Shown here: piece by piece, positions 120 to 63,012 of the stretch | Layout: each line of letters begins with the position of its first letter | Position numbering within the stretch: position 1 is the stretch's first letter | NCBI RefSeq assembly: GCF_051903065.1 | Contig: NZ_CP178440.1 | Origin: Escherichia coli | GTDB lineage: Bacteria; Pseudomonadota; Gammaproteobacteria; Enterobacterales; Enterobacteriaceae | Strand: one strand, 5' to 3' | DNA: 64,000 nt | The notes under the pieces: model-generated | The model's input: the letters and a program-made list of their open reading frames with translations, nothing else | What the model was told of the DNA's origin: nothing | Database searches by the model: none | Translations under genes and position numbers: made by a program

Positions 120-1049
<930 letters not shown>

Positions 1050-1364: not shown

Positions 1365-2184
1365 GGCACTGTTGCAAAGTTAGCGATGAGGCAGCCTTTT
1401 GTCTTATTCAAAGGCCTTACATTTCAAAAACTCTGCTTACCAGGCGCATTTCGCCCAGGGGATCACCATAATAAAATGCTGAGGCCTGGCCTTTGCGTAG
1501 TGCACGCATCACCTCAATACCTTTGATGGTGGCGTAAGCCGTCTTCATGGATTTAAATCCCAGCGTGGCGTTGATTATCCGTTTCAGTTTGCCATGATCG
1601 CATTCAATCACGTTGTTCCGGTACTTAATCTGTCGGTGTTCAACGTCAGACGGGCACCGGCCTTCGCGTTTGAGCAGAGCAAGCGCGCGACCATAGGCGG
1701 GCGCTTTATCCGTGTTGATGAATCGCGGGATCTGCCACTTCTTCACGTTGTTGAGGATTTTACCCAGAAACCGGTATGCAGCTTTGCTGTTACGACGGGA
1801 GGAGAGATAAAAATCGACAGTGCGGCCCCGGCTGTCGACGGCCCGGTACAGATACGCCCAGCGGCCATTGACCTTCACGTAGGTTTCATCCATGTGCCAC
1901 GGGCAAAGATCGGAAGGGTTACGCCAGTACCAGCGCAGCCGTTTTTCCATTTCAGGCGCATAACGCTGAACCCAGCGGTAAATCGTGGAGTGATCGACAT
2001 TCACTCCGCGTTCAGCCAGCATCTCCTGCAGCTCACGGTAACTGATGCCGTATTTGCAGTACCAGCGTACGGCCCACAGAATGATGTCACGCTGAAAATG
2101 CCGGCCTTTGAATGGGTTCATGTGCAGCTCCATCAGCAAAAGGGGATGATAAGTTTATCACCACCGACTATTTGCAACAGTGCC
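1365..2184 (-). mobile_element. IS26 copy 1 (820 bp), 14-bp terminal inverted repeats ggcactgttgcaaa / tttgcaacagtgcc
   Basis: Exact terminal repeats at both ends; internal ORF is Tnp26; flanking 8-mers cttgtacg and tctcaaaa differ, so no target site duplication. Confidence 0.95.
1417..2121 (-). CDS. tnpA: IS26 transposase (DDE, IS6 family)
   Basis: ORF translation [31 protein letters not shown]... identical in all three IS26 copies; ORF-track start lies 6 codons upstream of the usual Met. Confidence 0.95.
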
Positions 2185-9962: not shown

Positions 9963-10155
9963 TACAGGGGCAGGCGGTGGAGGCCGCCTGTCAGCCCGCG
10001 CGAAAACCCCTGGCAGGCTGACGCCTGCCGGAAGGGAAGCGGGCCACGCTGGCGCGTCGCCCGTTACCCTTCCCGTCTGTGATGTGTCTGACTCAGGAGT
10101 GTTTCTTTCTTATGTTGCGGAACTGTTCCTGATGTTGTTGTTGTTCCTTTATCTG

Positions 10156-10763
10156 CTGCTCTGATTCTGACTACTGCAGTGTTGTTCTGTCTGCCGGGCG
10201 CACCTTCGGCTCCCGGCTGCCTGGCGGCATCCGGTCGTCAGGCCCGACTCCGACAGGCAGCTGCTGGCGCACCTGCCAGTCTCCGCCGAACCCGCTGGCG
10301 CGGCTTCGGGCTGCCGCTACGGTCCGATGCGTGAAAACCCCGGGCTTGCAGCGACCGTTCCGGTCGCGCCGCCTCTGTCGCGCCGTGGCCTGCGCTCCTG
10401 GCATCCCGGCAAAAGGCCGCCGGGATGTAAGGGGCAACGCCGTTTCGCGCACGCGCTCTCCGTCGTTGCGGCGGGTCCCTGCTCATTGCCTGCCGGGTGC
10501 CACACACCCGTATGAGTCCCTGTCGCCGGGGGCTGATACAGCCACAACCTGCCGCACTGACTGTCCAGGGTAAATGAACAGCCCACAAAATTTTTTACCC
10601 AAAACCCGGTAAAAAATTTTGCGTTCTGCCCAGGACAGGTGCGTCAGGCCGTGGCAGTGATGCCCCTTGCGGCGAAGGTTCTCAAACGGGTGAAGTTCAT
10701 ACCACAGGGAATACAGCAGCAGGTTCCCGCGAAACGTCAAAACCGCGGCTCCCGAAACTCAAC
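10156..10763 (+). promoter_or_regulatory. Frpo/ssi-like structured repeat, copy A (candidate single-strand promoter / priming element)
   Basis: About 608 bp sharing long identical blocks with copies B and C; contains a 14-bp perfect inverted repeat at 10585-10598 / 10608-10621; ORFs called inside on both strands are artefacts. Confidence 0.65.
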
Positions 10764-11003
10764 GGGTGATGTTCTTTAAAAATCAGGATTTATTTCAGGC
10801 TCCGGCAATACGCATTTATTTGTTCTGTCAGTCATCCGGCTGGCAGGTAATGAGAACGCAGGAACAGAAGGAGGAAAACACCGTAGAACGTCAGACGCAG
10901 ATATGAAAAAAGCAGGTCAGGGACCTGCTTAATCCACGCCGTAAGAATTGCGCAACCAATTTTGACGGCATTGTTAACCAATTTGTCATAAGGAGTTTCA
11001 TTT

Positions 11004-11234
11004 ATGACAGTAAGTATTGTTTCACCTTCCGCAGCGGCTGTAAAGCCCCGCCGTCATCCCCGTTTCAGACGCGAAGACATCCCCGCGCCGGAAATTGACC
11101 CCGTGCTGAAAGCCTTCGGGCGACACATTGCCCGGAGTTTTCACCGGGGGCGTGGTGTACACATCCCCGCCATGAAAAACACGGCCTTCGGGCAGGTGCT
11201 CCGCACACTCGAACTGAAACGCGCTTTTAACTGA
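11004..11234 (+). CDS. Hypothetical small basic protein (76 aa) first gene after repeat copy A
   Basis: ORF with RBS aaggag 9 nt upstream of ATG. Confidence 0.4.
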   Translation: MTVSIVSPSAAAVKPRRHPRFRREDIPAPEIDPVLKAFGRHIARSFHRGRGVHIPAMKNTAFGQVLRTLELKRAFN

Positions 11235-13258: not shown

Positions 13259-13464
13259 AGACGCCGGGCAGGCGGGAGGATAAATGCCCGTCTGCCCGCG
13301 CCGGGAAAAGACCGCGCGCCGGTGGCGCTGAAAGGGGCCGCGCTCACGCGCCGCCCCTTTCATTACGCGGACGTTCTGATGGGGGCTTCTGTTTCTTCAT
13401 GCCTGTCATTTGTCTGTTACTGATGTTGTTGTTCCTGCTACTGCTACTGTTCTTCTTTTTCCTG

Positions 13465-14074
13465 CTGCTCTGATTCTGACTACTGCAGTGTTGTCCCGTC
13501 TGCCGGGCGCACCTTCGGCTCCCGGCTGCCTGGCGGCATCCGGTCGTCAGGCCCGACTCCGACAGGCAGCTGCTGGCGCACCTGCCAGTCTCCGCCGAAC
13601 CCGCTGGCGCGGTTTCGGGCTGTCGCTACGGTCCGATGCGTGAAAACCCCGGGCTTGCAGCGACCGTTCCGGTCGCGCCGCCTCTGTCGCGCCGTGGCCT
13701 GCGCTCCTGGCATCCCGGCAAAAGGCCGCCGGGATGTAAGGCGCAACGCCGTTTCGCAAACCGCGCTTCACGTCGTTGCGGCGGGTCCCTGCCCGTTGTT
13801 GTGTCCGGTGCCATTCACCTGTTTAAGCCCCTGTCGCCGGGGGCATAGACAGCCACAACCGTCTCCGCCAGTCCAGGGGTGAAATGCACATCCCGCAAAA
13901 CTTTTTGCCCGGAAGCAGGCAAAAACTTTTGCGGTCTGCCCCCGGACAGTCGTTTCCGGCCGTGGCAGTGATGCCCCTTGCGGCGAAGGTTCTCAAACAG
14001 GTGATGGTGAATACCGGAGGGAACAAAGAGCAGGTCCCCGCAAAACGTCAAAACCGCGGCTCCCGAAACTCAAC
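13465..14074 (+). promoter_or_regulatory. Frpo/ssi-like structured repeat, copy B, immediately upstream of ssb
   Basis: 610 bp, nearly identical to copy C (a few mismatches), more diverged from copy A; inverted repeat cgcaaaactttttgcc / ggcaaaaacttttgcg. Confidence 0.65.
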
Positions 14075-14115
14075 AGATGATGGGGGCTGAAAACATCAAC
14101 AGAAGGAGACACATC

Positions 14116-15591: not shown

Positions 15592-16411
15592 GGCACTGTT
15601 GCAAATAGTCGGTGGTGATAAACTTATCATCCCCTTTTGCTGATGGAGCTGCACATGAACCCATTCAAAGGCCGGCATTTTCAGCGTGACATCATTCTGT
15701 GGGCCGTACGCTGGTACTGCAAATACGGCATCAGTTACCGTGAGCTGCAGGAGATGCTGGCTGAACGCGGAGTGAATGTCGATCACTCCACGATTTACCG
15801 CTGGGTTCAGCGTTATGCGCCTGAAATGGAAAAACGGCTGCGCTGGTACTGGCGTAACCCTTCCGATCTTTGCCCGTGGCACATGGATGAAACCTACGTG
15901 AAGGTCAATGGCCGCTGGGCGTATCTGTACCGGGCCGTCGACAGCCGGGGCCGCACTGTCGATTTTTATCTCTCCTCCCGTCGTAACAGCAAAGCTGCAT
16001 ACCGGTTTCTGGGTAAAATCCTCAACAACGTGAAGAAGTGGCAGATCCCGCGATTCATCAACACGGATAAAGCGCCCGCCTATGGTCGCGCGCTTGCTCT
16101 GCTCAAACGCGAAGGCCGGTGCCCGTCTGACGTTGAACACCGACAGATTAAGTACCGGAACAACGTGATTGAATGCGATCATGGCAAACTGAAACGGATA
16201 ATCAACGCCACGCTGGGATTTAAATCCATGAAGACGGCTTACGCCACCATCAAAGGTATTGAGGTGATGCGTGCACTACGCAAAGGCCAGGCCTCAGCAT
16301 TTTATTATGGTGATCCCCTGGGCGAAATGCGCCTGGTAAGCAGAGTTTTTGAAATGTAAGGCCTTTGAATAAGACAAAAGGCTGCCTCATCGCTAACTTT
16401 GCAACAGTGCC
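15592..16411 (+). mobile_element. IS26 copy 2 (820 bp)
   Basis: Exact 14-bp terminal inverted repeats; flanking 8-mers gaccgcat and ttgtgaac. Confidence 0.95.
15655..16359 (+). CDS. tnpA: IS26 transposase
   Basis: Identical translation to the other copies. Confidence 0.95.
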   Translation: MNPFKGRHFQRDIILWAVRWYCKYGISYRELQEMLAERGVNVDHSTIYRWVQRYAPEMEKRLRWYWRNPSDLCPWHMDETYVKVNGRWAYLYRAVDSRGRTVDFYLSSRRNSKAAYRFLGKILNNVKKWQIPRFINTDKAPAYGRALALLKREGRCPSDVEHRQIKYRNNVIECDHGKLKRIINATLGFKSMKTAYATIKGIEVMRALRKGQASAFYYGDPLGEMRLVSRVFEM

Positions 16412-17046: not shown

Positions 17047-17670
17047 ATGCCTAACGTGATAGCATTTTTAAATGGTAAGGGGGGGGTGTCTAAGACAACC
17101 TCGGCAGTTAATATTGCTACTGCTCTTGCTCGTAAGGGTTACAAAGTTGTTGTTGTGGATACCGATCCCCAGGGAAGTGTTAGTAACTGGTATGATGACA
17201 GTAAGTGTGTTTTTGATGTAGCGGAAGCTACGGCAGAAAAAGAAATTTACCGTTTGCGGAAGGCGCTTCCTTTGCACGATTTTATCATTATTGATGGTGC
17301 TGCTGCGATTTCGGCGATATCGGCGGCTGCTGTTATGGTTTCTGATCTTGTTATTATTCCAGTTACTCCTTCGCCGCTTGATTTTGCTGCGTGTGGCGCG
17401 ATATTGGCAGTGATAGAAGCTCGTCAGGATTTACGCCCGGTGATTGCTCGCTTTTTGATTACTAAAAAAGTACAGCAAACGCATATGTTATCTTTGCTGA
17501 AAGAATCTATTGCAGAAACAAGCATACCAGCATTAAAAACAGGAACGTCGTACAGGCAGTCATATATAAGATCTATGCTGGATGGTGGTACTATATTTGA
17601 TACAAAAGATAGTGCTGCTAAAGGTGAAATATCAGTTATTACAGAAGAAATACTTGGACTATTAAAATGA
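17047..17670 (+). CDS. ParA-family partition ATPase (small, type Ib-like)
   Basis: Deviant Walker [11 protein letters not shown] at N-terminus, 207 aa. Confidence 0.85.
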
Positions 17671-18284: not shown

Positions 18285-19775
18285 TTACCACCCAATGGCA
18301 AAACCAGCTCCTAAGTTTGTATCACCACCATTGTTCCATGATGTGTTGACTCGTATGTTAGCATTCTGGCTCACTTTATATTGAACTCCGGCTGCGATTG
18401 CTTGAGCATCACGATAATGCCCCACGCCCATACCAAATGAAAAGCGCTCATTATTAACATAAGGAATTGATGAAATAGCGGTAACTCCGGCAATACCCGC
18501 ATTAGCACGCTTTTCGACTCTATCTATTTTTTTATTCATTTGTGAGAATCTTTGCTCATTTTTCTGCTGTAAATCATTTAATGTTTTATTGAAGTTTTTA
18601 CCTAATGTATCAACGCTAGATGCAGTATATTTGTTTGCCATTTCTAGAGTGTTTAAATCACCTTGTTCACGGAGTCTTTTCTCTTCATTGATTGCACTTG
18701 TTCTGGCTTTTTTTTCTTCATTTATTCTTGCAACTACTGATTTGCTGGGGTCTTTTTCTATATTTTTAATTTCATCTTCACTCATGCCTATAGCTTTAGT
18801 GACAACATCTAATTGGGACATATTCACAGCATCTGTAGGATTTACGCCCCCGGCAAGATTCGTGATTCTTCTGTTTATCATGGGCTCTGTCGTTGTTGCT
18901 TCCCTTCCTAAAGATACAACACCATTCTTACTATCTGTGTTCTCTACAGCGGTATATTTAGATACAGTATCATCATATTGATTATGCGTTTTCGATCTTG
19001 CCCCAAGAGCAATACTGCCTTTTGAATTAGACTCAGATAAATATCCAATGGAAACAGAATCAGTTTCCTGAGAGGCTGAATATGATCCTAATGCAATACT
19101 ATTTTTACCAATGGAATGAGACTCTAATCCTATGGCAGAACTGCCAGAGCCAATTGATAATGATTGACTACCCAATGCTGTACCAAATTCACCAACCACC
19201 GTCGAAAAGGAACCTACTGCCGTTCCTTCAATATTGTGGGAACTTGATTTATATCCCATTACAGATGACGCATATTGATTCCCATATTTCTCCTTAGCAT
19301 GAGGATCAACAGATGAGTCAACAGAAATATGTCCATCAGCGGATACTGTTATTTTTTTACCACTCACATCTAAGGATGAATTATTTTCAGGCAATTTAGT
19401 TACTGAAGCTTTGTTACCGATTAAAGTTGAATAGTTTCCTTCTGAATCAATTTTCGATCTGGATCCAACTATAGTCGAAAAAGTCCCTGCTTCTGTTGCA
19501 GAATCGTATCCTATTACTACTGATGCTCCTGCTCCTCCTTTTTCTGGTATATTCAAAGACTTAGAATTTGGACCTATTACTACTGAGAAATTTTGTTCTG
19601 ATCTTGTAGCATCACCAATTCCCTTACCAATAGCGATACTGCCAATACCTGAAGATTCTGTATTATCCGCACCAATAGCTATAGATGAGTAGCCTTTAGG
19701 ATTAGCAGCAAAAGAACAAAGGCTAACACCAGATAATGTTAATAGTATAGATGATAAAATTAATTTATTATTCAT
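18285..19775 (-). CDS. Trimeric autotransporter adhesin (YadA-like head repeats, coiled-coil stalk, C-terminal beta-barrel anchor)
   Basis: Signal peptide MNNKLILSSILLTLSGVSLCSFA, repetitive SIAIG/SxGxxS head motifs, heptad-rich stalk, C-terminal anchor ending GAGFAIGW. Confidence 0.8.
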   Translation of the reverse strand: MNNKLILSSILLTLSGVSLCSFAANPKGYSSIAIGADNTESSGIGSIAIGKGIGDATRSEQNFSVVIGPNSKSLNIPEKGGAGASVVIGYDSATEAGTFSTIVGSRSKIDSEGNYSTLIGNKASVTKLPENNSSLDVSGKKITVSADGHISVDSSVDPHAKEKYGNQYASSVMGYKSSSHNIEGTAVGSFSTVVGEFGTALGSQSLSIGSGSSAIGLESHSIGKNSIALGSYSASQETDSVSIGYLSESNSKGSIALGARSKTHNQYDDTVSKYTAVENTDSKNGVVSLGREATTTEPMINRRITNLAGGVNPTDAVNMSQLDVVTKAIGMSEDEIKNIEKDPSKSVVARINEEKKARTSAINEEKRLREQGDLNTLEMANKYTASSVDTLGKNFNKTLNDLQQKNEQRFSQMNKKIDRVEKRANAGIAGVTAISSIPYVNNERFSFGMGVGHYRDAQAIAAGVQYKVSQNANIRVNTSWNNGGDTNLGAGFAIGW

Positions 19776-19921
19776 AGCAACATATCCCACCAAAGTAGAT
19801 AGATTATCGTTATTCCTCGATAAATAAATTGCAATGTAAGATACATTAATCTTAACAATGTGTTAACATAAGAGGCTGTTAACACATTTAGTTTATAACA
19901 TAAAACATCATAAATATTAAG

Positions 19922-20741
19922 GGCACTGTTGCAAATAGTCGGTGGTGATAAACTTATCATCCCCTTTTGCTGATGGAGCTGCACATGAACCCATTCAAAG
20001 GCCGGCATTTTCAGCGTGACATCATTCTGTGGGCCGTACGCTGGTACTGCAAATACGGCATCAGTTACCGTGAGCTGCAGGAGATGCTGGCTGAACGCGG
20101 AGTGAATGTCGATCACTCCACGATTTACCGCTGGGTTCAGCGTTATGCGCCTGAAATGGAAAAACGGCTGCGCTGGTACTGGCGTAACCCTTCCGATCTT
20201 TGCCCGTGGCACATGGATGAAACCTACGTGAAGGTCAATGGCCGCTGGGCGTATCTGTACCGGGCCGTCGACAGCCGGGGCCGCACTGTCGATTTTTATC
20301 TCTCCTCCCGTCGTAACAGCAAAGCTGCATACCGGTTTCTGGGTAAAATCCTCAACAACGTGAAGAAGTGGCAGATCCCGCGATTCATCAACACGGATAA
20401 AGCGCCCGCCTATGGTCGCGCGCTTGCTCTGCTCAAACGCGAAGGCCGGTGCCCGTCTGACGTTGAACACCGACAGATTAAGTACCGGAACAACGTGATT
20501 GAATGCGATCATGGCAAACTGAAACGGATAATCAACGCCACGCTGGGATTTAAATCCATGAAGACGGCTTACGCCACCATCAAAGGTATTGAGGTGATGC
20601 GTGCACTACGCAAAGGCCAGGCCTCAGCATTTTATTATGGTGATCCCCTGGGCGAAATGCGCCTGGTAAGCAGAGTTTTTGAAATGTAAGGCCTTTGAAT
20701 AAGACAAAAGGCTGCCTCATCGCTAACTTTGCAACAGTGCC
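19922..20741 (+). mobile_element. IS26 copy 3 (820 bp), same orientation as copy 2
   Basis: Exact terminal inverted repeats; flanking 8-mers atattaag and accggaag. Confidence 0.95.
19985..20689 (+). CDS. tnpA: IS26 transposase
   Basis: Identical translation to the other copies. Confidence 0.95.
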   Translation: MNPFKGRHFQRDIILWAVRWYCKYGISYRELQEMLAERGVNVDHSTIYRWVQRYAPEMEKRLRWYWRNPSDLCPWHMDETYVKVNGRWAYLYRAVDSRGRTVDFYLSSRRNSKAAYRFLGKILNNVKKWQIPRFINTDKAPAYGRALALLKREGRCPSDVEHRQIKYRNNVIECDHGKLKRIINATLGFKSMKTAYATIKGIEVMRALRKGQASAFYYGDPLGEMRLVSRVFEM

Positions 20742-22029
20742 ACCGGAAGTACAGACCATTCGTCGTCTGGTGACCGAAAGTGAAGTGGCGGTGGCGGGGA
20801 ACAGTAAATTCCGCTTCGTGGGGGCTGATGCCTTCTCGCCAGACGAACTGCGCACCGATTTGTTCAGCGATGACGGGGACGGTTATGTCGACCGCGTGGC
20901 GCTCGATGCTGCCCTGCTGGAAAAACTCCAGGCTGTCGCAGAGTTCCTTCGGGAAGCCGAGGGCTGGGGATGGTGCGCCGGACGCATGGAGCCTGTCGGT
21001 GAATGCCGTGAAGATGCCCGGGCATACCGCAACCTGCCGGAGCCGGAAGCGGTGCTGACGGAGGCGGAAGAAGAACACCTGAACGAACTGATGGCACGTT
21101 ACGACGCGCTGGAAAACCAGTGTGAGGAATCTGACCTGCTGGCAGCAGAAATGAAGCTGATTGACTGCATGGCGAAGGTCAGGGCGTGGACGCCGGAGAT
21201 GCGTGCCGGAAGTGGCGTGGTGGTGTCCTGGCGTTACGGTAATGTGTGTATCCAGCGTGGTGTGCAGTTGCGCAGTGAGGATGATGTGGCTGACGACGCT
21301 GACCGCACGGAACAGGGGCTGGAGAGCGCGTCAGTGGAGGAAATCAGTCTGCCGTTGCTGACTAAACTGACCTCAGAGCGCACGCTGGCAGTCCAGGCAG
21401 CACTGATGCAGCAACCGGACAAATCCCTGGCACTGCTGGCATGGACGCTCTGCCTGAATGTGTTTGACAGCAAAGCGCACTGTAGTCCCGCCAGAATTCG
21501 CCTGGCATGTGAGCATTATGCGCTGACCAGCGATGCACCGTCGGGGAAGGAAGGTGCCGCATTCATGGCGCTGATGGCAGAACACTCTCGTTTTGCTGCC
21601 CTGCTGCCGGAAGGATGGGAACGGGATATGACGACGTTCCTGTCACTCAGCCAGGAGGTGCTGTTATCCCTGCTCAGCTTCTGTACCGCGTGCAGTCTTA
21701 ACGGTGTCCAGACCCGAGAGTGTGGTCACACGTCACGCAGTCCGCTTGACTCGCTGGAAACCGCCATCGGCTTTCACATGCGCGACTGGTGGCAGCCGAC
21801 AAAAGCAAACTTCTTCGGACACCTGAAAAAGCCGCAGATTATCGCAGCTCTGAATGAGGCAGGACTGTCCGGTGCCGCACGGGACGCGGAGAAGATGAAG
21901 AAAGGCGATGCGGCTGAACATGCAGAGTTCCATATGAAAGACAACCGCTGGGTGCCTGGCTGGATGTGTGCACCACGTCCACAGACGGATACCACTGAAC
22001 GCACCGATAACCTGGCTGATGCCGCCTGA
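20742..22029 (+). pseudogene. ParB-like leading-region gene, C-terminal fragment (continues the frame interrupted at 15591)
   Basis: Open frame begins exactly at the IS26 boundary; joining 15591 to 20742 gives codon ata and an uninterrupted frame. Confidence 0.6.
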
Positions 22030-22083
22030 TGAACAACCACACCGCCCCGCCGGAGACGGGGCGGCAGCAAGGGAGATACCGTG

Positions 22084-22518
22084 ATGAAAACTGAACTGAC
22101 CCTGAATGTATTACAGACCATGAGTGCACAGGAATATGAAGATATCCGGGCTGCCGGAAGTGATGAACGCCGTGAGCTGACACACGCCGTGATGCGGGAA
22201 CTGGATGCGCCGGACAACTGGACGATGAATGGCGAGTACGGCAGCGAGTTCGGCGGCTTTTTCCCCGTCCAGGTCCGTTTCACGCCTGCCCACGAACGTT
22301 TTCACCTGGCGTTATGTTCACCGGGCGATGTCTCTCAGGTCTGGGTGCTGGTTCTGGTGAATGCCGGTGGTGAGCCGTTTGCGGTGGTTCAGGTGCAGCG
22401 GCGGTTTGCACCGGAAGCTGTCAGCCATTCACTGGCACTGGCGGCGTCACTGGATGCGCAGGGGTACAGCGTTAACGACATCATTCATATCCTGATGGCG
22501 GAAGGAGGTCAGGCATGA
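22084..22518 (+). CDS. psiB: Plasmid SOS inhibition protein PsiB
   Basis: [32 protein letters not shown]... matches PsiB as recalled. Confidence 0.9.
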
Positions 22519-23234
22519 GCGCACGTTCACAGGCACTGGTTCCTCTCAGCACAGAGCAACAGGCCGCATGGCGGGCGGTGGCGGAGACCGAAAAACGCCG
22601 CCATCAGGGTAACACGCTGGCTGAATATCCGTATGCGGGTGCGTTTTTCCGCTGTCTGAACGGAAGCCGCAGGATATCGCTGTCTGACCTGCGATTTTTC
22701 ATGCCGTCCCTGACCGCAGAAGAACTGCACGGCAACCGTCTTCAGTGGCTGTATGCCATCGATGTGCTGATTGAAACACAGGGCGAGGTCTGCCTCCTTC
22801 CCCTTCCCGGCGATGCAGCAGAGCGCTTGTTCCCGTCGGTGCGGTTTCGTGTCAGGGAACGCAGTCGCCATAAATCCGCGCTGGTCATGCAGAAGTACAG
22901 CCGCCAGCAAGCGAGGGAGGCAGAGCAGAAAGCCCGTGCGTACCAGGTGCTGGTTGCTCAGGCTGAAATCGAACTGGCATTTCATTCACCGGAAACAGTC
23001 GGAAGCTGGCATGCACGCTGGAGTGACCGGGTGGCAGAGCATGACCTGGAACCCCTGTTCTGGCAGTGGGGCGAGCGTTTTCCGTCACTGGCCGGAATGG
23101 AACGCTGGCAGTGGCAGGATATGCCATTCTGGCAGGTTATCGCGGAAGCCAGTCTGGCAGCCAGAGAGGCCGGTCATGCTGTCCGTGAGATGGAGCGGTG
23201 GATGGTGCCGAACAAACTCCGGGAGGCAGCGTGA
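22515..23234 (+). CDS. psiA: PsiA
   Basis: 239-aa ORF overlapping psiB stop, conserved psiB-psiA arrangement. Confidence 0.85.
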
Positions 23235-23455
23235 TGCGGCAATAATCACACGGATTACCCGTGAACTGGTTGAACGACCAGATTATTTTCAGGGAAAGTG
23301 AGTGTGGTCAGCGTGCAGGGATATGAGCTATGATGTGCCCGGCGCTTGAGGCTTTCTGCCTCATGACGTGAAGGTGGTTTGTTGCCGTGTTGTGTGGCAG
23401 AAAGAAGATAGCCCCGTAGTAAGTTAATTTTCATTAACCACCACGAGGCATCCCT

Positions 23456-23668
23456 ATGTCTAGTCCACATCAGGATAGCCTCTTACCGCGCTTTGCGCAA
23501 GGAGAAGAAGGCCATGAAACTACCACGAAGTTCCCTTGTCTGGTGTGTGTTGATCGTGTGTCTCACACTGTTGATATTCACTTATCTGACACGAAAATCG
23601 CTGTGCGAGATTCGTTACAGAGACGGACACAGGGAGGTGGCGGCTTTCATGGCTTACGAATCCGGTAA
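23456..23668 (+). CDS. mok: Mok (modulation of killing) reading frame overlapping hok
   Basis: 70-aa ORF in alternate frame spanning hok. Confidence 0.55.
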
Positions 23669-23672
23669 GTAG
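23514..23672 (+). CDS. hok: Hok toxin (52 aa), host-killing membrane peptide of the hok/sok post-segregational killing locus
   Basis: Hand translation [52 protein letters not shown]; absent from ORF track because under 60 aa; the antisense Sok RNA should lie on the minus strand just upstream but was not mapped. Confidence 0.85.
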
Positions 23673-23943
23673 CAACCTGGAGGCGGGCGCAGGCCCGCCT
23701 TTTCAGGACTGATGCTGGTCTGACTACTGAAGCGCCTTTATAAAGGGGCTGCTGGTTCGCCGGTAGCCCCTTTCTCCTTGCTGATGTTGTACGGGCATGA
23801 ACAACCTGACTTCAGGAAGGTCGTTTCCCTTCAGGAACGGGGATGAACGCGCGCCTGCGGCGCCCGTTCTTTTCCCCCGCCTTCTCTGGTTATGGCCTGT
23901 CAAAAATCACATCACCTTCCCTGTGATTATTCTCTTTTTCTTC

Positions 23944-24553
23944 CTGCTCTGATTCTGACTACTGCAGTGTTGTCCTGTCTGCCGGGCGCACCTTCGGCTC
24001 CCGGCTGCCTGGCGGCATCCGGTCGTCAGGCCCGACTCCGACTGGCAGCTGCTGGCGCACCTGCCAGTCTCCGCCGAACCCGCTGGCGCGGTTTCGGGCT
24101 GTCGCTACGGTCCGATGCGTGAAAACCCCGGGCTTGCAGCGACCGTTCCGGTCGCGCCGCCTCTGTCGCGCCGTGGCCTGCGCTCCTGGCATCCCGGCAA
24201 AAGGCCGCCGGGATGTAAGGCGCAACGCCGTTTCGCAAACCGCGCTTCACGTCGTTGCGGCGGGTCCCTGCCCGTTGTTGTGTCCGGTGCCATTCACCTG
24301 TTTAAGCCCCTGTCGCCGGGGGCATAGACAGCCACAACCGTCTCCGCCAGTCCAGGGGTGAAATGCACATCCCGCAAAACTTTTTGCCCGGAAGCAGGCA
24401 AAAACTTTTGCGGTCTGCCCCCGGACAGTCGTTTCCGGCCGTGGCAGTGATGCCCCTTGCGGCGAAGGTTCTCAAACAGGTGATGGTGAATACCGGAGGG
24501 AACAAAGAGCAGGTCCCCGCAAAACGTCAAAACCGCGGCTCCCGAAACTCAAC
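23944..24553 (+). promoter_or_regulatory. Frpo/ssi-like structured repeat, copy C
   Basis: 610 bp nearly identical to copy B (offset 10479 bp); followed by an RBS and an ORF. Confidence 0.65.
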
Positions 24554-24593
24554 AGATGATGGGGGCTGAAAACCAGAGAGAGGAGAAAGCAGG

Positions 24594-27424: not shown

Positions 27425-27539
27425 ATGAAAATGAAGTTTGAGTTGGTTCAAATATAAGAATTTTTATGATTCAAAAAGATGACAATACGTCAGATAATTA
27501 GTATATTAATTACGTGGTTAATGCCACGTTAAAAATTGA

Positions 27540-27615
27540 AACTGAAAATCGCCGATGCAGGGAGGTCTGAACTCCCTGCATCGACTGTCCATAGAATCCT
27601 TAACGGAGGTTCCTA
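27540..27615 (-). ncRNA. finP: FinP antisense RNA (approximate), complementary to the traJ leader and RBS
   Basis: Stem-loop gatgcagggag-gtctgaact-ccctgcatc at about 27555-27583 in the traJ 5' leader; ends not determined. Confidence 0.4.
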
Positions 27616-28301
27616 TGTGTGCGCTGGATCGTAGAGAAAGGCCACTTAACAGTCAATCTGTAAATAAGTACATCCTTAACGTTCAGAATATCTACAGAAA
27701 TTCTCCCGTTCCGGTTTGTGTCCGTAACAAAAACCGGAAAATCCTTTATGCCAATGGGGCTTTTATTGAACTCTTTTCCAGAGAAGATAAACCCTTATCC
27801 GGAGAGAGTTATATACGTCTGCAGGTTGAAATTTTTCTTTCATCACTTGAATTGGAATGCCAGGCTCTTGGACATGGCTCTGCATTTTGTCGTCGTTTTA
27901 ATTTTCATGGCGAAATCTATCAGATAAGGATGGAGAATGTTTCTTTTTATAATGACGAATCTGTTGTTTTATGGCAAATTAATCCGTTTCCTGATTATCC
28001 ATTTTTTGCGTTAAGTCAGAGTGGAAGTAATACAAATACTTCTGATAAATTAACGATATGGAATGATCTTTCCCCCGGGACATTGCTTGTTTTCTCTTTT
28101 TATATGCTGGGTGTTGGTCATGCAACAATTGCCAGAGAATTGGGTATTACAGACAGAGCATCTGAGGATCGAATTAAACCAGTTAAACGGAAAATAAAAG
28201 AATTTTTTGAACACTTTGATTTATTCAGAGTGTCATGTATCTATAAAGGGAAAATAGATTTGCTATTAAATATAATTCGTGAATTTTATAGCGTTAAGTA
28301 A
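27615..28301 (+). CDS. traJ: Transfer operon activator TraJ
   Basis: ORF from ATG after RBS ggagg; position between traM and traY; ORF-track start is 20 codons upstream. Confidence 0.8.
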
Positions 28302-46966: not shown

Positions 46967-49779
46967 ATGAAGTTTATGTGATTGCCGGTGGTGAGTGGTT
47001 GCGGAATAACCTGAACGCCATTGCCGCCTTTATGGGAACCAGGACGTGGGATTCCATTGAAAAAATTGCGCTCACATTGTCTGTTCTCGCGGTGGCCGTG
47101 ATGTGGGTACAGCGGCACAACGTGATGGATTTGCTGGGCTGGGTGGCCGTGTTTGTGCTTATCAGCCTGCTGGTTAATGTCCGCACATCGGTGCAGATTA
47201 TTGATAACAGTGACCTGGTCAAAGTTCACCGGGTGGATAATGTACCGGTCGGACTGGCGATGCCACTTTCACTGACGACCCGTATCGGGCATGCGATGGT
47301 GGCAGGTTATGAGATGGTGTTCGCTCAGCCTGACAGCGCCACCTACAGCAAGACAGGCATGCTGTTCGGGGCGAACCTGATTGTGAAAAGCACCGATTTC
47401 CTGTCCCGGAATCCGGAAATCATCAATCTGTTTCAGGACTACGTCCAGAACTGCGTGCTGGGTGATATTTACCTGAACCACAAATACACGCTGGAAGACC
47501 TGATGGCCTCCGGTGACCCCTACACGCTGATTTTTTCCCGGCCCAGCCCGCTACGGGGCGTTTATGACAGCAATAATAATTTCATAACCTGTAAAGATGC
47601 GTCGGTCACGCTGAAAGACAGGCTGAATCTCGATACAAAGACGGGAGGCAAGACCTGGCATTATTATGTGCAGCAGATATTTGGCGGCAGGCCGGACCCT
47701 GACCTGTTATTCAGACAACTGGTGAGTGACAGTTACAGTTATTTCTACGGCTCCAGCCAGTCTGCCAGCCAGATTATGCGCCAGAACGTCACCATGAATG
47801 CCCTGAAAGAGGGTATCACCAGTAATGCGGCCCGTAACGGTGATACCGCCAGCCTGGTCAGTCTGGCCACGACTTCGTCGATGGAGAAACAGCGTCTGGC
47901 ACATGTCTCCATTGGTCATGTGCTGATGCGAAACCTGCCGATGGTGCAGACCATTCTGGTGGGCATTACCATTGGTATCTTCCCGCTCCTGGTACTGGCG
48001 GCTGTCTTCAACAGACTGACGCTGTCTGTTCTGAGAGGCTATGTGTTTGCTCTGATGTGGTTCCAGACCTGGCCGTTGCTGTATGCCATTCTGAACAGTG
48101 CCATGACATTCTATGCAAAGCAGAATGGTGCACCGGTCGTGCTCTCTGAACTCTCTCAGATACAGCTGAAATACTCCGACCTGGCGTCCACTGCCGGATA
48201 TATATCTGTCATGATACCCCCGTTGTCATGGATGATGGTAAAAGGCCTTGGCGCAGGTTTTTCCAGCGTGTACAGCCATTTCGCTTCCTCTGCTATCAGT
48301 CCAACTGCCAGTGCGGCAGGTAGTGTGGTTGACGGTAATTACTCCTACGGCAACATGCAGACGGAAAACGTGAACGGCTTCAGCTGGAGCACCAACAGCA
48401 CCACGTCGTTTGGTCAGATGATGTACCAGACCGGCAGTGGCGCAACCGCCACACAGACCCGTGACGGTAATATGGTGATGGATGCAAGCGGAGCTATGTC
48501 CCGGTTACCGGTCGGCATCAATGCAACGCGTCAGATTGCGGCAGCACAACAGGAAATGTCCCGGGAAGCATCGAACAGAGCAGAAAGTGCCCTGCATGGG
48601 TTCAGCAGCAGTATTGCCAGTGCCTGGAACACGCTCAGTCAGTTTGGTTCTAACCGGGGGAGCAGTGATTCTGTCACAGGTGGTGCTGACAGCACCATGA
48701 GCGCACAGGACTCCATGATGGCCAGCCGTATGCGCAGTGCAGTGGAAAGCTATGCGAAGGCGCATAATATCAGTAATGAGCAGGCGACAAGAGAACTGGC
48801 ATCGAGAAGTACAAATGCGTCGCTTGGCCTTTACGGTGATGCTTATGCTAAAGGGCATTTAGGCATAAGTGTATTGGGTAACGGTGGAGGGGTTGGTCTC
48901 CAGGCCGGAGCTAAGGCAAGCATTGATGGCAGTGATCTTGACTCACATGAAGCCAGTAGTGGTTCACGGGCCAGCCATGATGCTCGTCATGATATCGATG
49001 CCAGAGCTACACAAGACTTTAAAGAGGCCAGCGATTACTTTACCAGCCGCAAAGTCAGTGAATCCGGCAGCCATACTGACAATAATGCCGATTCCCGCGT
49101 GGACCAGCTGTCTGCAGCCCTGAACTCAGCGAAACAGAGTTACGACCAGTACACGACGAATATGACCCGCAGCCATGAATATGCTGAAATGGCATCCCGT
49201 ACTGAAAGCATGAGTGGGCAGATGAGTGAAGATCTGTCGCAACAGTTTGCACAGTATGTGATGAAACACGCACCGCAGGATGCCGAAGCTATTCTGACAA
49301 ACACCAGTTCACCGGAGATTGCAGAACGCCGCCGGGCGATGGCGTGGTCTTTTGTGCAGGAACAGGTGCAGCCTGGTGTTGATAATGCCTGGCGTGAATC
49401 CCGTGGCGATATTGGTAAAGGAATGGAGAGCGTACCTTCGGGTGGTGGCAGCCAGGATATTATTGCTGACCATCAGGGGCATCAGGCCATTATTGATCAA
49501 AGAACGCAGGACAGTAATATCCGGAATGATGTAAAACATCAGGTTGATAATATGGTCACAGAATATAAAGGGAATATAGGTGATACTCAGAACAGTATCC
49601 GTGGCGAGGAAAATATTGTAAGAGGGCAGTATTCTGAACTACAAAATCATCATAAAACAGAAGCATTAACTCAGAATAATAAATATAATGAAGAAAAGCT
49701 GGCTCAGGAAAGAATACCTGGTGCTGATAGTCCGAAAGAGCTTTTAGAGAAAGCAAAGAGTTACCAGCATAAAGAATAA
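46963..49779 (+). CDS. traG: TraG (mating-pair stabilisation / entry-exclusion determinant)
   Basis: 938-aa ORF, N-terminal membrane domain. Confidence 0.9.
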   Translation: MNEVYVIAGGEWLRNNLNAIAAFMGTRTWDSIEKIALTLSVLAVAVMWVQRHNVMDLLGWVAVFVLISLLVNVRTSVQIIDNSDLVKVHRVDNVPVGLAMPLSLTTRIGHAMVAGYEMVFAQPDSATYSKTGMLFGANLIVKSTDFLSRNPEIINLFQDYVQNCVLGDIYLNHKYTLEDLMASGDPYTLIFSRPSPLRGVYDSNNNFITCKDASVTLKDRLNLDTKTGGKTWHYYVQQIFGGRPDPDLLFRQLVSDSYSYFYGSSQSASQIMRQNVTMNALKEGITSNAARNGDTASLVSLATTSSMEKQRLAHVSIGHVLMRNLPMVQTILVGITIGIFPLLVLAAVFNRLTLSVLRGYVFALMWFQTWPLLYAILNSAMTFYAKQNGAPVVLSELSQIQLKYSDLASTAGYISVMIPPLSWMMVKGLGAGFSSVYSHFASSAISPTASAAGSVVDGNYSYGNMQTENVNGFSWSTNSTTSFGQMMYQTGSGATATQTRDGNMVMDASGAMSRLPVGINATRQIAAAQQEMSREASNRAESALHGFSSSIASAWNTLSQFGSNRGSSDSVTGGADSTMSAQDSMMASRMRSAVESYAKAHNISNEQATRELASRSTNASLGLYGDAYAKGHLGISVLGNGGGVGLQAGAKASIDGSDLDSHEASSGSRASHDARHDIDARATQDFKEASDYFTSRKVSESGSHTDNNADSRVDQLSAALNSAKQSYDQYTTNMTRSHEYAEMASRTESMSGQMSEDLSQQFAQYVMKHAPQDAEAILTNTSSPEIAERRRAMAWSFVQEQVQPGVDNAWRESRGDIGKGMESVPSGGGSQDIIADHQGHQAIIDQRTQDSNIRNDVKHQVDNMVTEYKGNIGDTQNSIRGEENIVRGQYSELQNHHKTEALTQNNKYNEEKLAQERIPGADSPKELLEKAKSYQHKE

Positions 49780-54341: not shown

Positions 54342-57300
54342 TGATGAGTATCGCGCAGGTCAGATCGGCCGGAAGTGCCGGTAACTATTATACCGACAAG
54401 GATAATTACTATGTGCTGGGCAGCATGGGAGAACGCTGGGCCGGCAGGGGGGCTGAACAGCTGGGACTGCAGGGCAGTGTCGATAAGGATGTTTTTACCC
54501 GTCTTCTGGAGGGAAGGCTGCCGGACGGAGCGGATCTAAGCCGCATGCAGGATGGCAGTAACAGGCATCGTCCCGGCTACGACCTGACCTTCTCCGCCCC
54601 CAAAAGTGTCTCCATGATGGCCATGTTAGGTGGCGATAAGCGCCTGATTGATGCACATAACCAGGCCGTGGACTTTGCTGTTCGTCAGGTGGAGGCGCTG
54701 GCCTCCACACGGGTGATGACGGACGGACAGTCAGAAACGGTGCTGACCGGTAATCTGGTGATGGCACTGTTTAACCACGACACTAGTCGCGATCAGGAAC
54801 CACAGTTACACACGCATGCGGTGGTGGCTAATGTCACGCAGCATAACGGTGAGTGGAAGACACTGAGCAGTGACAAAGTGGGGAAAACGGGGTTCATTGA
54901 GAATGTGTACGCTAATCAGATTGCCTTTGGCAGGCTCTATCGGGAAAAACTGAAAGAGCAGGTTGAGGCGCTGGGCTATGAAACCGAAGTGGTGGGTAAG
55001 CACGGTATGTGGGAGATGCCGGGCGTACCGGTGGAGGCCTTTTCCGGACGCTCACAGGCTATCCGAGAGGCCGTCGGGGAAGATGCCTCGCTAAAATCCC
55101 GGGATGTGGCGGCACTGGATACGCGAAAATCCAAACAGCACGTCGATCCTGAAGTCAGAATGGCTGAATGGATGCAGACGCTGAAGGAAACCGGGTTCGA
55201 CATCCGGGCATATCGTGACGCGGCGGATCAGCGTGCGGAGACCCGCACGCAGGCGCCCGGGGCTGTTTCACAGGAGGGGCCGGATGTGCAGCAGGCGGTG
55301 ACACAGGCGATTGCCGGATTAAGTGAACGAAAAGTGCAGTTTACGTACACGGACGTGCTGGCCAGAACAGTCGGCATACTGCCGCCGGAAAATGGTGTGA
55401 TTGAACGGGCACGCGCCGGTATCGATGAGACCATCAGCCGTGAGCAACTCATCCCCCTTGACCGTGAGAAGGGGCTGTTCACGTCCGGGATTCATGTGCT
55501 CGATGAACTGTCAGTCCGGGCACTCAGTCGCGATATCATGAAACAGAACCGGGTGACCGTACATCCGGAGAAAAGTGTCCCCCGGACGGCCGGCTACAGT
55601 GATGCCGTCAGTGTTCTGGCACAGGACCGTCCGTCGCTGGCCATTGTGTCCGGGCAGGGCGGTGCAGCCGGGCAGCGTGAGCGGGTGGCTGAACTGGTCA
55701 TGATGGCCCGGGAGCAGGGGCGGGAGGTGCAGATTATCGCTGCTGACCGTCGCTCGCAGATGAACCTGAAGCAGGATGAACGGCTGTCCGGTGAGCTGAT
55801 AACCGGACGTCGTCAGCTGCCGGAAGGCATGGCCTTCACGCCGGGCAGTACTGTTATCGTTGACCAGGGCGAAAAACTCTCCCTGAAAGAGACGTTAACC
55901 CTGCTAGACGGTGCCGCACGTCATAACGTACAGGTCCTGATAACCGACAGCGGGCAGCGAACCGGTACAGGCAGTGCGCTGATGGCCATGAAGGATGCCG
56001 GGGTTAACATATATCGCTGGCAGGGCGGAGAGCAACGACCGGCAACCATCATCAGTGAACCGGACCGTAATGTCCGCTATGCCCGGCTGGCCGGGGACTT
56101 TGCGGCCAGCGTGAAAGCCGGAGAAGAGAGCGTGGCACAGGTCAGCGGGGTACGGGAACAGGCCATACTGACACAGGCCATTCGCAGTGAGCTGAAAACA
56201 CAGGGCGTGCTCGGACACCCGGAGGTAACCATGACCGCCCTGTCACCGGTCTGGCTGGACAGCCGGAGCCGTTATCTGCGGGATATGTACCGCCCGGGAA
56301 TGGTGATGGAGCAGTGGAACCCGGAGACACGCAGTCATGACCGCTATGTTATCGACCGGGTGACGGCGCAGAGTCACAGCCTGACCCTGCGGGATGTGCA
56401 GGGCGAAACGCAGGTGGTGCGTATTTCCTCCCTGGACAGCAGCTGGTCGCTGTTCCGGCCGGAAAAAATGCCGGTGGCAGACGGCGAGCGACTGAGGGTG
56501 ACCGGGAAAATTCCCGGACTCCGAGTCTCCGGCGGTGACCGCCTGCAGGTGGCATCCGTCAGTGAAGATGTGATGACGGTTGTTGTGCCGGGGCGGGCTG
56601 AACCGGCCTCCCTGCCTGTGAGCGATTCACCGTTCACGGCACTGAAGCTGGAGAATGGCTGGGTGGAAACGCCCGGGCATTCCGTCAGCGACAGTGCGAA
56701 GGTTTTTGCCTCCGTCACACAGATGGCAATGGACAAGGCCACCCTGAACGGTCTGGCCCGCAGCGGTCGTGATGTCCGGCTGTATTCCTCACTGGATGAA
56801 ACCCGTACTGCGGAAAAACTTGCCCGCCATCCGTCCTTTACGGTGGTTTCTGAGCAGATAAAGGCGCGGGCCGGTGAGACATCGCTGGAAACGGCTATCA
56901 GTCATCAGAAGTCCGCACTTAACACGCCGGCACAGCAGGCCATTCATCTTGCCCTTCCGGTGGTGGAAAGTAAAAACCTGGCCTTCAGCCATGTGGACCT
57001 GCTGACAGAGGCAAAGTCGTTTGCTGCAGAAGGAACCAGTTTTGCTGACCTGGGGCGGGAAATCGATGCGCAGATAAAACGGGGCGATTTACTGCATGTG
57101 GATGTGGCAAAAGGTTATGGCACAGACCTGCTGGTTTCCCGTGCGTCGTATGAGGCTGAAAAAAGCATTCTTCGCCATATTCTCGAAGGTAAGGAGGCGG
57201 TCACGCCGCTGATGGAGAGAGTACCTGGCGAACTCATGGAGAAACTGACATCAGGACAGCGCGCCGCCACCCGCATGATACTGGAAACGCCCGACCGTTT

Positions 57301-61324: not shown

Positions 61325-61709
61325 TGAAAAAAAACGGCAAAAAAAAGACTTCCCCTGAGCAAAGGAGGCCAAAAATCATTCATAGCGTATTACTGACATT
61401 GAATGAATGCTCTGTACATCAACCCTGTGAAGCTACCACCGGTTAATGCCGGGAGGTTGCGGGAAGAAAGATAATACACAGTCATTACGTGGTTAATATC
61501 TGTCAGAATGTTTTTTGTGACCATAAACTGTCAGATGGATAAAAAAGACCGTCATGTGACGGTCAGTGTTGTCCTGTCAGGGACAAATGCATTCAGTAAG
61601 GAGAGCAAAATAATAACATCACGTTGCCCGGCTGTTAATATCAGGCGATGTTAAGTGTTATTTATGACTCTTTTATCTGGTTGTGAAGTCTGTTAATCAG
61701 GAAGAGAAA

Positions 61710-62309
61710 ATGGCGACCGGAAAATCAGAGAAGCAACAGGTGATTGCCTTTATCGATTACGAGAACTGCAGTAACCTGACAGAAATTTCCTTAAATATAT
61801 ATACGGAGTTAATTATATTCGCGGGTGCGAAACAGAATAATGTGGCACTGCCAGTAAACGCTTTCCCTGAAGCAGTAAAAATCACACTCCGGCATGTCAG
61901 TGAAGTCTCCCGGAACAATGTTGATTTTCATCTGGTGCTGGAGCTGGGGCAGTGTGTATGCCACTACGGGCCGGAGAAGGAATACCATATTGTTTCCGCT
62001 GACAAGGGATATGACGGTATTGTCCGGACACTGCAGGCGCGCGGGATTCGCTGCCGTCGCGTCTCCCCGGATAAGGCGTCATCAGTAAAGATGGCTGCAC
62101 CCGACATGGATATCGTTATCCGGTGGGCAAACAAAATTCAACAGGCAGCGCGGGAGGTTCGTAATATGCCGGTAACAGAAAAGACATTTAATAATTATTT
62201 AAAATCACAGATGCGCGGTGAATGGCGTGATGTCCTGACCAGAGGTATCCGGGATGAACTGGTCCGTCGCGGGGTAATGAAAATTCAGGGGAATAAAATC
62301 ATCTGGTAA
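61710..62309 (+). CDS. Hypothetical protein with NYN/PIN-like nuclease motif pattern (VIAFIDYENC ... IVSADKGYDGIV)
   Basis: Motif pattern in translation; start chosen at ATG with RBS ggaagag. Confidence 0.5.
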   Translation: MATGKSEKQQVIAFIDYENCSNLTEISLNIYTELIIFAGAKQNNVALPVNAFPEAVKITLRHVSEVSRNNVDFHLVLELGQCVCHYGPEKEYHIVSADKGYDGIVRTLQARGIRCRRVSPDKASSVKMAAPDMDIVIRWANKIQQAAREVRNMPVTEKTFNNYLKSQMRGEWRDVLTRGIRDELVRRGVMKIQGNKIIW

Positions 62310-62703: not shown

Positions 62704-62952
62704 TATGTGGCAGAACTCCGGACACTGACGCCTTCGCGTTGCTCAGTTGTCCAACCCCGGAAACGGGAAAAAGCAAGTTTTCCCCGCTCCCGGCGTTTCT
62801 GCAATAAAAAGCAGGGGCATGGAGGTCGTCGTAACCAGACAGGAATGTGGTATTATCGCGGCGGGTGTCTGAGCCTTTCTGGTTCAGGCAAGACGCAGGT
62901 ACCAGAAATGCGAAGACCCCACTCGTTAATCCATTAACTCGTGAGGTCTGCA

Positions 62953-63012
62953 TGAAGTACTTAGCACTACTGATTGTAGCCTCTTCTTTGCAGAGAGGTC
63001 AAAGTTTATGAC
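62953..63012 (+). CDS. Leader reading frame (19 aa) translationally coupled to the hok-family toxin (mok/pndC-like)
   Basis: ATG 62953, stop overlaps toxin start as ATGA. Confidence 0.4.

Follow-up and report, generated by a model that had tools for sequence, protein, structure and literature searches.

Two modules of the hok/sok toxin-antitoxin design, hok/mok/sok and srnB/srnC, in a 64-kb stretch of Escherichia coli plasmid DNA

The window, which here means the whole stretch of DNA analysed, comprises 64,000 nucleotides of Escherichia coli contig NZ_CP178440.1 (RefSeq assembly GCF_051903065.1). Overall, it resembles F33-type IncFII plasmids with CTX-M-55. Two loci of the hok toxin family are located on its plus strand: a hok/mok/sok module at approximately 23305-23738 and an srnB/srnC module at approximately 62848-63225. 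Upstream of hok lie psiB (22081-22518) and psiA (22515-23234), recognized by the Pfam models PsiB and PsiA. Downstream, a leading-region repeat of approximately 650 nt has its third copy at 23933-24576; the other copies start at 10145 and 13454. The srnB locus is preceded by finO, a PIN7-domain gene, and a 110-codon ORF, and is followed by a CopB-type regulator (63441-63689; PF10723, 116.7 bits) and the CopA RNA (63827-63916). An earlier note on this DNA had placed hok between psiA and repeat copy C, and a second toxin just upstream of copB; both placements agree with these coordinates.

The elements of the hok/mok/sok module are as follows.

23305-23334, plus strand: promoter of the hok mRNA, TGGTCA-18-TATGAT, from the consensus scan; it sets +1 at 23341.
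23341-23738, plus strand: full-length hok mRNA of 398 nt, ends predicted; MFE -175.9 kcal/mol, z = -8.25; RF01794 match at 23340-23516.
23341-23347, plus strand: tac, the 5'-end element GGCGCUU, paired in the MFE structure with 23730-23736; the complement is anchored at the 5' end.
23412-23415, plus strand: ucb, the anti-Shine-Dalgarno (anti-SD) C-run at mRNA nt 72-75, paired in the MFE structure with the mok SD.
23445-23448, plus strand: Shine-Dalgarno (SD) sequence of mok, GAGG, read from the sequence; mean P(unpaired) 0.25 in the full-length fold.
23456-23668, plus strand: mok, ATG to TAA, 70 codons, overlapping hok in another frame; exact UniRef "FlmC homolog" sequence.
23514-23672, plus strand: hok, ATG to TAG, 52-aa toxin; exact UniRef HOK_ECOLX sequence.
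23682-23703, plus strand: 3' stem-loop and U-run that would end a processed mRNA of approximately 361 nt; the stem is in the MFE structure and the role is taken from PMC9841398.
23730-23736, plus strand: fbi, AAGCGCC, the complement of tac, from the MFE structure and complement controls.
23472-23500, minus strand: predicted Sok promoter, TTGCGC-17-TATCCT, read off the minus strand (scripted pick 7/12); the same hexamers occur in F flm.
23401-23465, minus strand: Sok antisense RNA of approximately 65 nt, ends predicted, with an 11-nt leader, a hairpin (23453-23406), and a U-rich tail; it covers the SD and AUG of mok.

The 52-aa hok with its overlapping mok, which the earlier note had read at 23456-23672, corresponds to these two frames, and both score above the profile cut-offs. 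Hok scored 76.5 bits with Pfam HOK_GEF (PF01848; cut-off 22) and 126.4 bits with the NCBIfam Hok model (cut-off 73). Mok scored 151.6 bits with NCBIfam NF010277, named "modulator of post-segregation killing" (cut-off 110), and 140 bits with PF17496. According to the UniRef record, the exact Hok and the exact Mok sequences each occur in at least 1000 contigs. With +1 set at 23341, the published R1 positions G4/C5/T6, A70/G71/C72, and A106 (the GAGG of mok) all fall on the right bases (PMC9841398). The Sok promoter was below the threshold of the consensus scan and is weak by consensus (7/12).

The elements of the srnB/srnC module are as follows.

62848-62856, plus strand: promoter of the srnB mRNA with an extended -10, TGgTATTAT, identified by eye; homology to F starts just upstream, at approximately 62841.
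62863-63225, plus strand: full-length srnB mRNA of approximately 363 nt, ends predicted; the RF01794 match starts at 62863; MFE -151.2 kcal/mol, z = -7.38.
62863-62871, plus strand: tac, GGGUGUCUG, with a nine-base-pair MFE pairing to 63214-63222.
62917-62920, plus strand: anti-SD C-run at mRNA nt 55-58, paired in the MFE structure with the leader SD.
62943-62946, plus strand: SD sequence of the leader, GAGG, read from the sequence.
62952-63011, plus strand: leader ORF MKYLALLIVASSLQRGQSL, 19 codons, the analogue of mok; its TGA overlaps the srnB ATG as ATGA at 63008-63011.
63008-63157, plus strand: srnB, ATG to TAA, 49-aa toxin, equal to F plasmid protein WP_001312851.1.
63162-63192, plus strand: 3' stem-loop of the presumed processed mRNA, read from the sequence; the stem is in the MFE structure.
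63214-63222, plus strand: fbi, CAGACACCC, the complement of tac, from the MFE structure and complement controls.
62973-63002, minus strand: SrnC promoter, TTGACC-18-TACAAT (10/12), strong in the consensus scan; the same promoter occurs in F.
62906-62965, minus strand: SrnC antisense RNA of approximately 60 nt, ends predicted, with a 13-nt leader, a hairpin (62952-62909), and a UUU tail; it covers the SD and AUG of the leader ORF.

The promoter of the srnB mRNA was below the threshold of the consensus scan and was not picked up by it. The earlier note had located this toxin and its leader at 62953-63158; toxin and leader are real, but both ends of that interval are one base high (62952-63157). 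Its description of a second, divergent 49-aa peptide of the hok family with an adjacent 19-codon leader agrees with the profile result and the ATGA overlap: SrnB scored 37.3 bits with HOK_GEF (cut-off 22) and is 39% identical to Hok in a pairwise alignment. With the NCBIfam Hok subfamily model it scored 32.9 bits, under the cut-off of 73. In alignments and translations, the Hok, SrnB, and PndA-type peptides share a length of approximately 50 aa, an N-terminal hydrophobic helix, an R..LCE motif, and AYE near the C terminus. The codons of the conserved AYE carry UACG, which was considered as a TadA editing site. The hokB transcript reportedly undergoes A-to-I editing by TadA; the position corresponding to the edited residue of hokB is already Cys in both toxins of the window.

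PndA was considered as the identity of the 49-aa toxin and was ruled out, with 48% identity over 44 aa to the IncI-gamma/K peptide. Because the accession is shared with the F gene, the DNA aligns across the module, and the identities to Hok and PndA are only 39% and 48%, "srnB" is the precise label. Of the former designation "srnB/pndA-type", the first half therefore stands and the second does not. The pndA/pndB/pndC systems of IncI and IncB/K plasmids (R483, R16) are members of the same superfamily with the same RNA design; tac and fbi are present, RF01794 gives 123-133 bits on pnd loci, and an upstream ORF occurs there too (67 codons, out of frame). They differ in the toxin and in their tac/fbi class, GGGCGC/GCGCCC.

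A six-frame HMM scan of the whole 64-kb window detected two frames resembling hok, with E values of 7e-31 and 2e-29, and the hit ranked third had an E value of 0.07. HMM and phmmer scanning of the six frames found no third hok-family peptide in the window. The window therefore contains exactly two hok-family toxins, where at least two modules of the superfamily had been claimed. Both loci exceed the gathering score of Rfam RF01794 (59 bits), at 88.9 bits for hok and 90.9 bits for srnB. A check of 18 sampled ORFs, and of the closest plasmid's annotation, revealed no other addiction module. Each locus has matches in thousands of sequenced plasmids of Escherichia, Klebsiella, Salmonella, and Shigella, and in plasmid F the two positions are occupied by the corresponding modules, flm and srnB.

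The 5' end of each full-length mRNA folds back onto the 3' end in the MFE structure, nt 1-10 pairing with nt 387-396 in hok and nt 1-9 with nt 352-360 in srnB. The z values given above are relative to dinucleotide shuffles and refer to RNAs with predicted ends, the 3' ends having been picked by the tac/fbi complementarity itself. For this reason, shuffle and cross-locus controls were run, in which the 200 nt past each toxin stop were searched for a complement anchored at the first mRNA base. The srnB 5' end has a 9-nt complement after its own toxin stop, a length reached by 25 of 10,000 shuffles. The complement of the hok 5' end is 7 nt long and was reached by 434 of 10,000 shuffles, which is modestly unlikely alone. 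Neither 5' end has such a complement in the 200 nt past the toxin stop of the other locus.

The comparison was extended to ten loci, namely the two of the window, two of F, and six from Providencia, Aeromonas, IncK, and IncI-gamma plasmids, with 5' ends set by the Rfam match. A complement of tac lies 55-67 nt past the own toxin stop in all ten, and the pairs fall into four covarying classes: GGCGCUU/AAGCGCC, GGGUGUCUG/CAGACACCC, GGGUGCUUGA/UCAAGCACCC, and GGGCGC/GCGCCC. The hok and srnB loci of the window belong to different classes and show own-versus-other specificity. Since the complement is found in 10/10 loci at a constant position and in four covarying classes, the fold-back is conserved by compensation. 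The case for it rests on the 5' anchoring, the constant position, and the covariation, because the 3' ends were self-chosen and the hok 7-mer is only modestly unlikely. Covariation of the 5'/3' fold-back in the hok family was first described by Gultyaev et al. (1997), as cited in PMC9841398.

The SD of the upstream frame is likewise sequestered in the predicted folds, pairing with the C-run at nt 72-75 in hok and nt 55-58 in srnB (P(unpaired) 0.25). In the R1 hok mRNA, the published anti-SD position is the nt 72-75 region matched here (PMC9841398). In the MFE structures of the truncated mRNAs, the 5' end (tac) lies in a local hairpin and the SD is still paired. Plain MFE folding, a thermodynamic method applied to a kinetic, processing-driven switch, did not reproduce the published open conformation of the truncated mRNAs; the local 5' hairpin resembles the published metastable structure of the nascent transcript and not the open form.

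It is hardly conceivable that the small ORFs are chance frames without function. Small size, and nothing more, speaks for that view, and it is opposed by family scores far over the curated cut-offs, the Rfam match at both loci, peptides identical to the prototype toxins, the retention of each locus in thousands of plasmids, and an RNA structure that covaries.

Each locus is predicted to carry on its minus strand a promoter followed by a leader of 11-13 nt, a long hairpin, and a U-rich tail. Within the antisense hairpin, the 5' arm includes CCUC, which is complementary to the upstream-frame SD. The predicted folds reached -26.5 kcal/mol for Sok (z = -5.6) and -23.3 kcal/mol for SrnC (z = -4.3). 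As hairpin lengths differ among loci, antisense RNAs were folded locus by locus and then checked for their architecture; 9/9 loci have the same succession of leader, anti-SD hairpin, and U-tail, and the inner stems differ by compensating changes. The match of RF01794, which is named "sok", lies on the toxin-sense strand in 12/12 loci matched and spans the region from tac to the toxin AUG. Because the match is toxin-sense, RF01794 certifies the mRNA leader and not the antisense gene or its strand.

The cognate duplexes, with full complementarity, have energies of -125.6 kcal/mol for Sok and -121.2 kcal/mol for SrnC, against -32.7 and -35.9 kcal/mol for the cross pairs. The longest perfect complement between Sok or SrnC and the mRNA of the other locus is 7 nt. 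The two modules are considered orthogonal because neither antisense RNA matches the mRNA of the other. At the sequence level, it is supported that each locus has its own antisense RNA, as the earlier note had presumed. Fold prediction, which that note had proposed as a check, found both the fold-back and the antisense structures, the lack of which it had named as grounds for rejection.

The most conspicuous difference between the window and F concerns the leader of srnB. The upstream ATG of F and related plasmids runs in frame into srnB (68 aa), whereas the window has a 1-nt deletion after 62959 and its upstream frame stops after 19 codons. On this basis, the window srnB might be attenuated or silent, the deletion having uncoupled toxin translation and left hok/sok as the sole working killer. 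Decayed copies do exist: that of pMNCRE44_6 has neither promoter nor tac, and its toxin is truncated, with a 2-nt deletion. However, the ATGA overlap is the standard arrangement for termination-reinitiation, by analogy with which coupling in the window allele is presumed, and srnB retains a GAGG of its own, 9 nt before the ATG. The remaining elements of the module (toxin ORF, tac, fbi, both promoters, and SrnC hairpin) are intact. Plasmids with the 19-codon form are as numerous as those with the F form, approximately 722 window-type against approximately 730 F-type at ≥99% identity over 101 nt around the leader. The 19-codon form occurs in three sequence variants (the window form, MKYV..., and MKYI...), all with 19 codons and the ATGA overlap. 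Across the family, upstream frames have 19, 44, 67, 68, or 70 codons and end at various points from the start of the toxin to its stop. Because this end point varies so widely, the peptide sequence of the leader is unlikely to matter. Given the frequency of the 19-codon allele and the integrity of every other element, attenuation of srnB is improbable, and the locus is preferably read as an intact module. The absence of the 68-aa in-frame form is an allelic difference and does not exclude the locus from the srnB type.

In other respects, the module matches F srnB/srnC closely. The two have in common the 49-aa toxin (WP_001312851.1, 100% identity), the 9-mers of tac and fbi, the promoter and hairpin of SrnC, and the position just upstream of copB/CopA/repA. 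The differences are the patch with the 1-nt deletion, which also changes nt 2-7 of SrnC, and the sequence upstream of approximately 62841, which is unrelated in the window.

For the first locus, the likeness to R1 hok/mok/sok (parB), judged by peptide entry names and published positions, covers both peptides (HOK_ECOLX and "FlmC homolog"), the mRNA lengths of 398 and 361 nt, tac/fbi, the anti-SD, and the Sok layout. The window hok differs from R1 parB in lying in the conjugative leading region after psiA. R1 parB is described near the replication/resistance region. With F flmA/flmB/flmC, the window hok shares the architecture and the leading-region position downstream of psiB-psiA. The designation "classical hok" in the earlier note thus holds for the peptide and not for the genomic position, which is that of F flm. 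Identity to flm is approximately 97% outside the antisense gene, and residue 39 is H in the window Hok and Y in FlmA.

The differences from flm are unevenly distributed. Of 28 differences over the mRNA, 19 fall in the 66-nt Sok/FlmB gene (Fisher p = 2.9e-10). In a set of seven srnB alleles, the 62-nt SrnC gene contains 7/20 variable columns (p = 0.037), and 4/20, including the frame-changing indel, lie within 6 nt (62959-62964) of the SrnC 5' leader (permutation p = 0.02); the sample of alleles is small (seven srnB, four hok). The predicted energy of the window Sok on flm of F is half that of the cognate duplex (-63 vs -122 kcal/mol), with a perfect match of 5 nt instead of 16 nt in the 5' recognition part. 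SrnC on another srnB allele is predicted at -105 vs -117 kcal/mol. These patterns suggest, tentatively, that the antisense/target segments may be hot spots of allelic diversification. Killer modules of IncF plasmids that are otherwise nearly identical would thereby be divided into specificity classes, or "immunity groups". The loops of CopA, which define incompatibility subgroups of IncFII plasmids, offer a parallel. If so, the srnB leader-frame polymorphism would have arisen as a side effect of changes in the SrnC 5' recognition leader, and ribosome delivery alone would matter, not the leader peptide.

The same clustering in the antisense genes fits competition between related plasmids, and it raises the question of whether the modules, although functional, have been selected mainly for something other than segregational stability, such as early conjugative establishment (hok), plasmid-plasmid competition, or phage exclusion. 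The location of hok in the leading region, between psiA and the leading-region repeat, points in this direction, and a preprint that notes hok/Sok loci in leading regions mentions a possible part in early establishment (bioRxiv 10.1101/2025.08.07.668861, citing Samuel et al., 2024). Against this, experiments on hok/sok, flm, srnB, and pnd have established killing of plasmid-free cells, and the stabilisation that results, as their phenotype (bioRxiv 10.1101/2025.08.07.668861; PMC4147584). The other roles are compatible with stabilisation, and sequence does not tell them apart. A main role other than stabilisation is therefore regarded as unlikely, though less so than the attenuation of srnB.

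Plasmid stabilisation is the preferred reading. The window very probably contains two type I toxin-antitoxin modules of the hok/sok design, independent of each other and intact, which most likely act as plasmid-stabilising post-segregational killers. The ORFs, their family membership, the consensus promoters, the covarying fold-back, the SD sequestration in predicted folds, the antisense architecture, and the sequence orthogonality carry this conclusion. For half-lives, 3' processing, refolding, RNase III cleavage, translational coupling, toxicity, and killing, the modules would be expected to follow the prototypes R1 hok/sok and F srnB.

By analogy with the mechanism described for hok/sok (PMC9841398; PMC4147584), each toxin mRNA would be stable and made in a closed form, in which the first 7-9 nt pair with the 3' box (tac/fbi). 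In the closed mRNA, the SD of the upstream frame would be paired with the C-run, and both ribosomes and antisense RNA would be kept out. Slow 3' trimming would then take off the 3' box, and the mRNA would refold. In a plasmid-carrying cell, a short, constitutive, unstable antisense RNA (Sok, 23465-23401; SrnC, 62965-62906; both minus strand) would bind around the start of the upstream frame, which is mok in one module and the 19-codon leader in the other. Translation of that frame and of the coupled toxin would thereby be blocked, and the duplex degraded. Once the plasmid is lost, the antisense RNA would decay first, the leftover mRNA would be translated, and the membrane peptide of approximately 50 aa would kill the cell. 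Studies of R1 hok/sok, F srnB, and R483 pnd, cited in PMC9841398 and PMC4147584, report stable mRNA, unstable antisense RNA, RNase III cleavage, and killing. R1 Hok and Flm are toxic (bioRxiv 10.1101/2025.08.07.668861), and F SrnB is lytic, its lysis being delayed by SrnC (PMC12390103).

Public annotation of these loci is inconsistent. RefSeq has Hok as a 41-codon CDS, srnB is annotated with 49 or 68 aa, and some public records contain a spurious minus-strand "protein sok" CDS.

Both loci are already known in every essential, as their sequences, positions, and design are those of the prototypes, and the established picture is unchanged. The practical value of the finding lies in annotation, since ORF-length filters miss both modules. 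The two modules help explain the persistence of F-type resistance plasmids, such as this one with its CTX-M-55, without selection.

The toxin-sense strand was matched by Rfam family RF01794 ('sok antitoxin') in 12 of 12 loci, which include L003, L004 and L010-L015 from other plasmids and both toxin loci of the window.

23340-23516, plus strand, RF01794 match (Rfam), hok/mok/sok
62863-63020, plus strand, RF01794 match (Rfam), srnB/srnC

Because the match lies on the sense strand and extends from the 5' end of the toxin mRNA to the toxin AUG (157 nt), what RF01794 models is the leader of hok-family mRNAs and not the ~64-nt antisense RNA; a naive reading of the family gets both strand and size wrong. 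Public annotation of these genes also varies. Hok is recorded in RefSeq as a 126-nt CDS (41 codons, internal start), not as the 52-codon ORF.

L001 2798-2923, plus strand, annotated RefSeq Hok CDS
L004 5010-5135, annotated RefSeq Hok CDS
L009 30246-30371, annotated RefSeq Hok CDS

One record carries a spurious minus-strand 'protein sok' CDS (L001 2497-2685), the equivalent of which in the window is the minus-strand ORF 23255-23470. SrnB is 68 aa long in GenBank records versus 49 aa in RefSeq.

The reading frame of the ORF upstream of srnB is polymorphic across IncF plasmids, as compared among the window (62952-63011), L003 (2869-3075), L005-L007, L020 and L021. In the window type, which has three sequence variants, the leader has 19 codons and ends in ATGA, whereas the type in plasmid F is an in-frame 68-aa form; the two are nearly equal in frequency (~720-730 plasmids each at ≥99% identity). 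A decayed srnB copy was found in pMNCRE44_6 (L008, NZ_CP010882.1, 231-500), where unrelated sequence stands in place of the promoter and of ~27 nt at the 5' end of the mRNA, including the 5' pairing box tac, and a 2-nt deletion cuts the toxin to 44 aa. The srnB group at ~95% identity (~400 plasmids) may be in the same decayed state.

Directly downstream of the 3' pairing box (fbi) of each toxin mRNA lies an extra GC-rich hairpin, followed at hok by a U-rich run.

23742-23773, plus strand, hairpin beyond hok fbi
63238-63259, plus strand, hairpin beyond srnB fbi

These hairpins fall outside the published 398-nt full-length hok mRNA and may be the true transcription terminators, from which the mRNA would be rapidly trimmed back to fbi.

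Two genes lie directly upstream of srnB.

61683-62309, PIN7-domain protein, 208 aa
62371-62703, 110-aa ORF with no family match

The homologous PIN-domain gene is annotated in pCTXM55_020023. In plasmid F, the region preceding the srnB promoter is of unrelated sequence.

Downstream of hok lies the third copy of a ~650-nt direct repeat of the leading region, whose segments are 76-99% identical.

10145-10786, repeat copy, upstream of a DUF3560 gene
13454-14097, repeat copy, upstream of a 192-codon ORF located where the closest plasmid has ssb
23933-24576, repeat copy, upstream of the orf95/DUF932 pair

These leading-region repeats are likely of the single-strand promoter/ssi type that F-like plasmids are known to carry.

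Resistance and mobile elements were located as follows.

120-995, minus strand, CTX-M-type beta-lactamase gene
1417-2139, minus strand, IS26
15637-16359, plus strand, IS26
19967-20689, plus strand, IS26
17047-17670, ParA-like ATPase
18285-19793, minus strand, YadA-like trimeric autotransporter adhesin
20695-22029, plus strand, 444-codon ORF with no Pfam match

The ATPase and adhesin genes are carried by the IS26-flanked segment 16359-19967, and this cargo is missing from the closest plasmid match. The third IS26 adjoins the 444-codon ORF, which occupies the place of a 652-aa ParB/Spo0J-like gene in related plasmids, suggesting IS26-mediated truncation.

Further plasmid RNAs were detected by Rfam.

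10907-11009, minus strand, AS-pc01
47682-47767, minus strand, AS-traG
57190-57266, minus strand, AS-traI
27512-27621, traJ 5' UTR with FinP

The original description of the antisense RNAs AS-pc01, AS-traG and AS-traI was on pHK01, and the set fits an IncFII backbone of the pHK01/F33-like kind.

Allelic differences cluster in the antisense genes (23400-23465 and 62906-62967). Between hok of the window and flm of plasmid F, 19 of 28 differences fall inside the antisense gene (p = 3e-10); among seven srnB alleles, a 6-nt hot spot in the SrnC 5' leader (62959-62964) holds 4 of the 20 variable columns (p = 0.02). The clustering may reflect diversification of antitoxin specificity.
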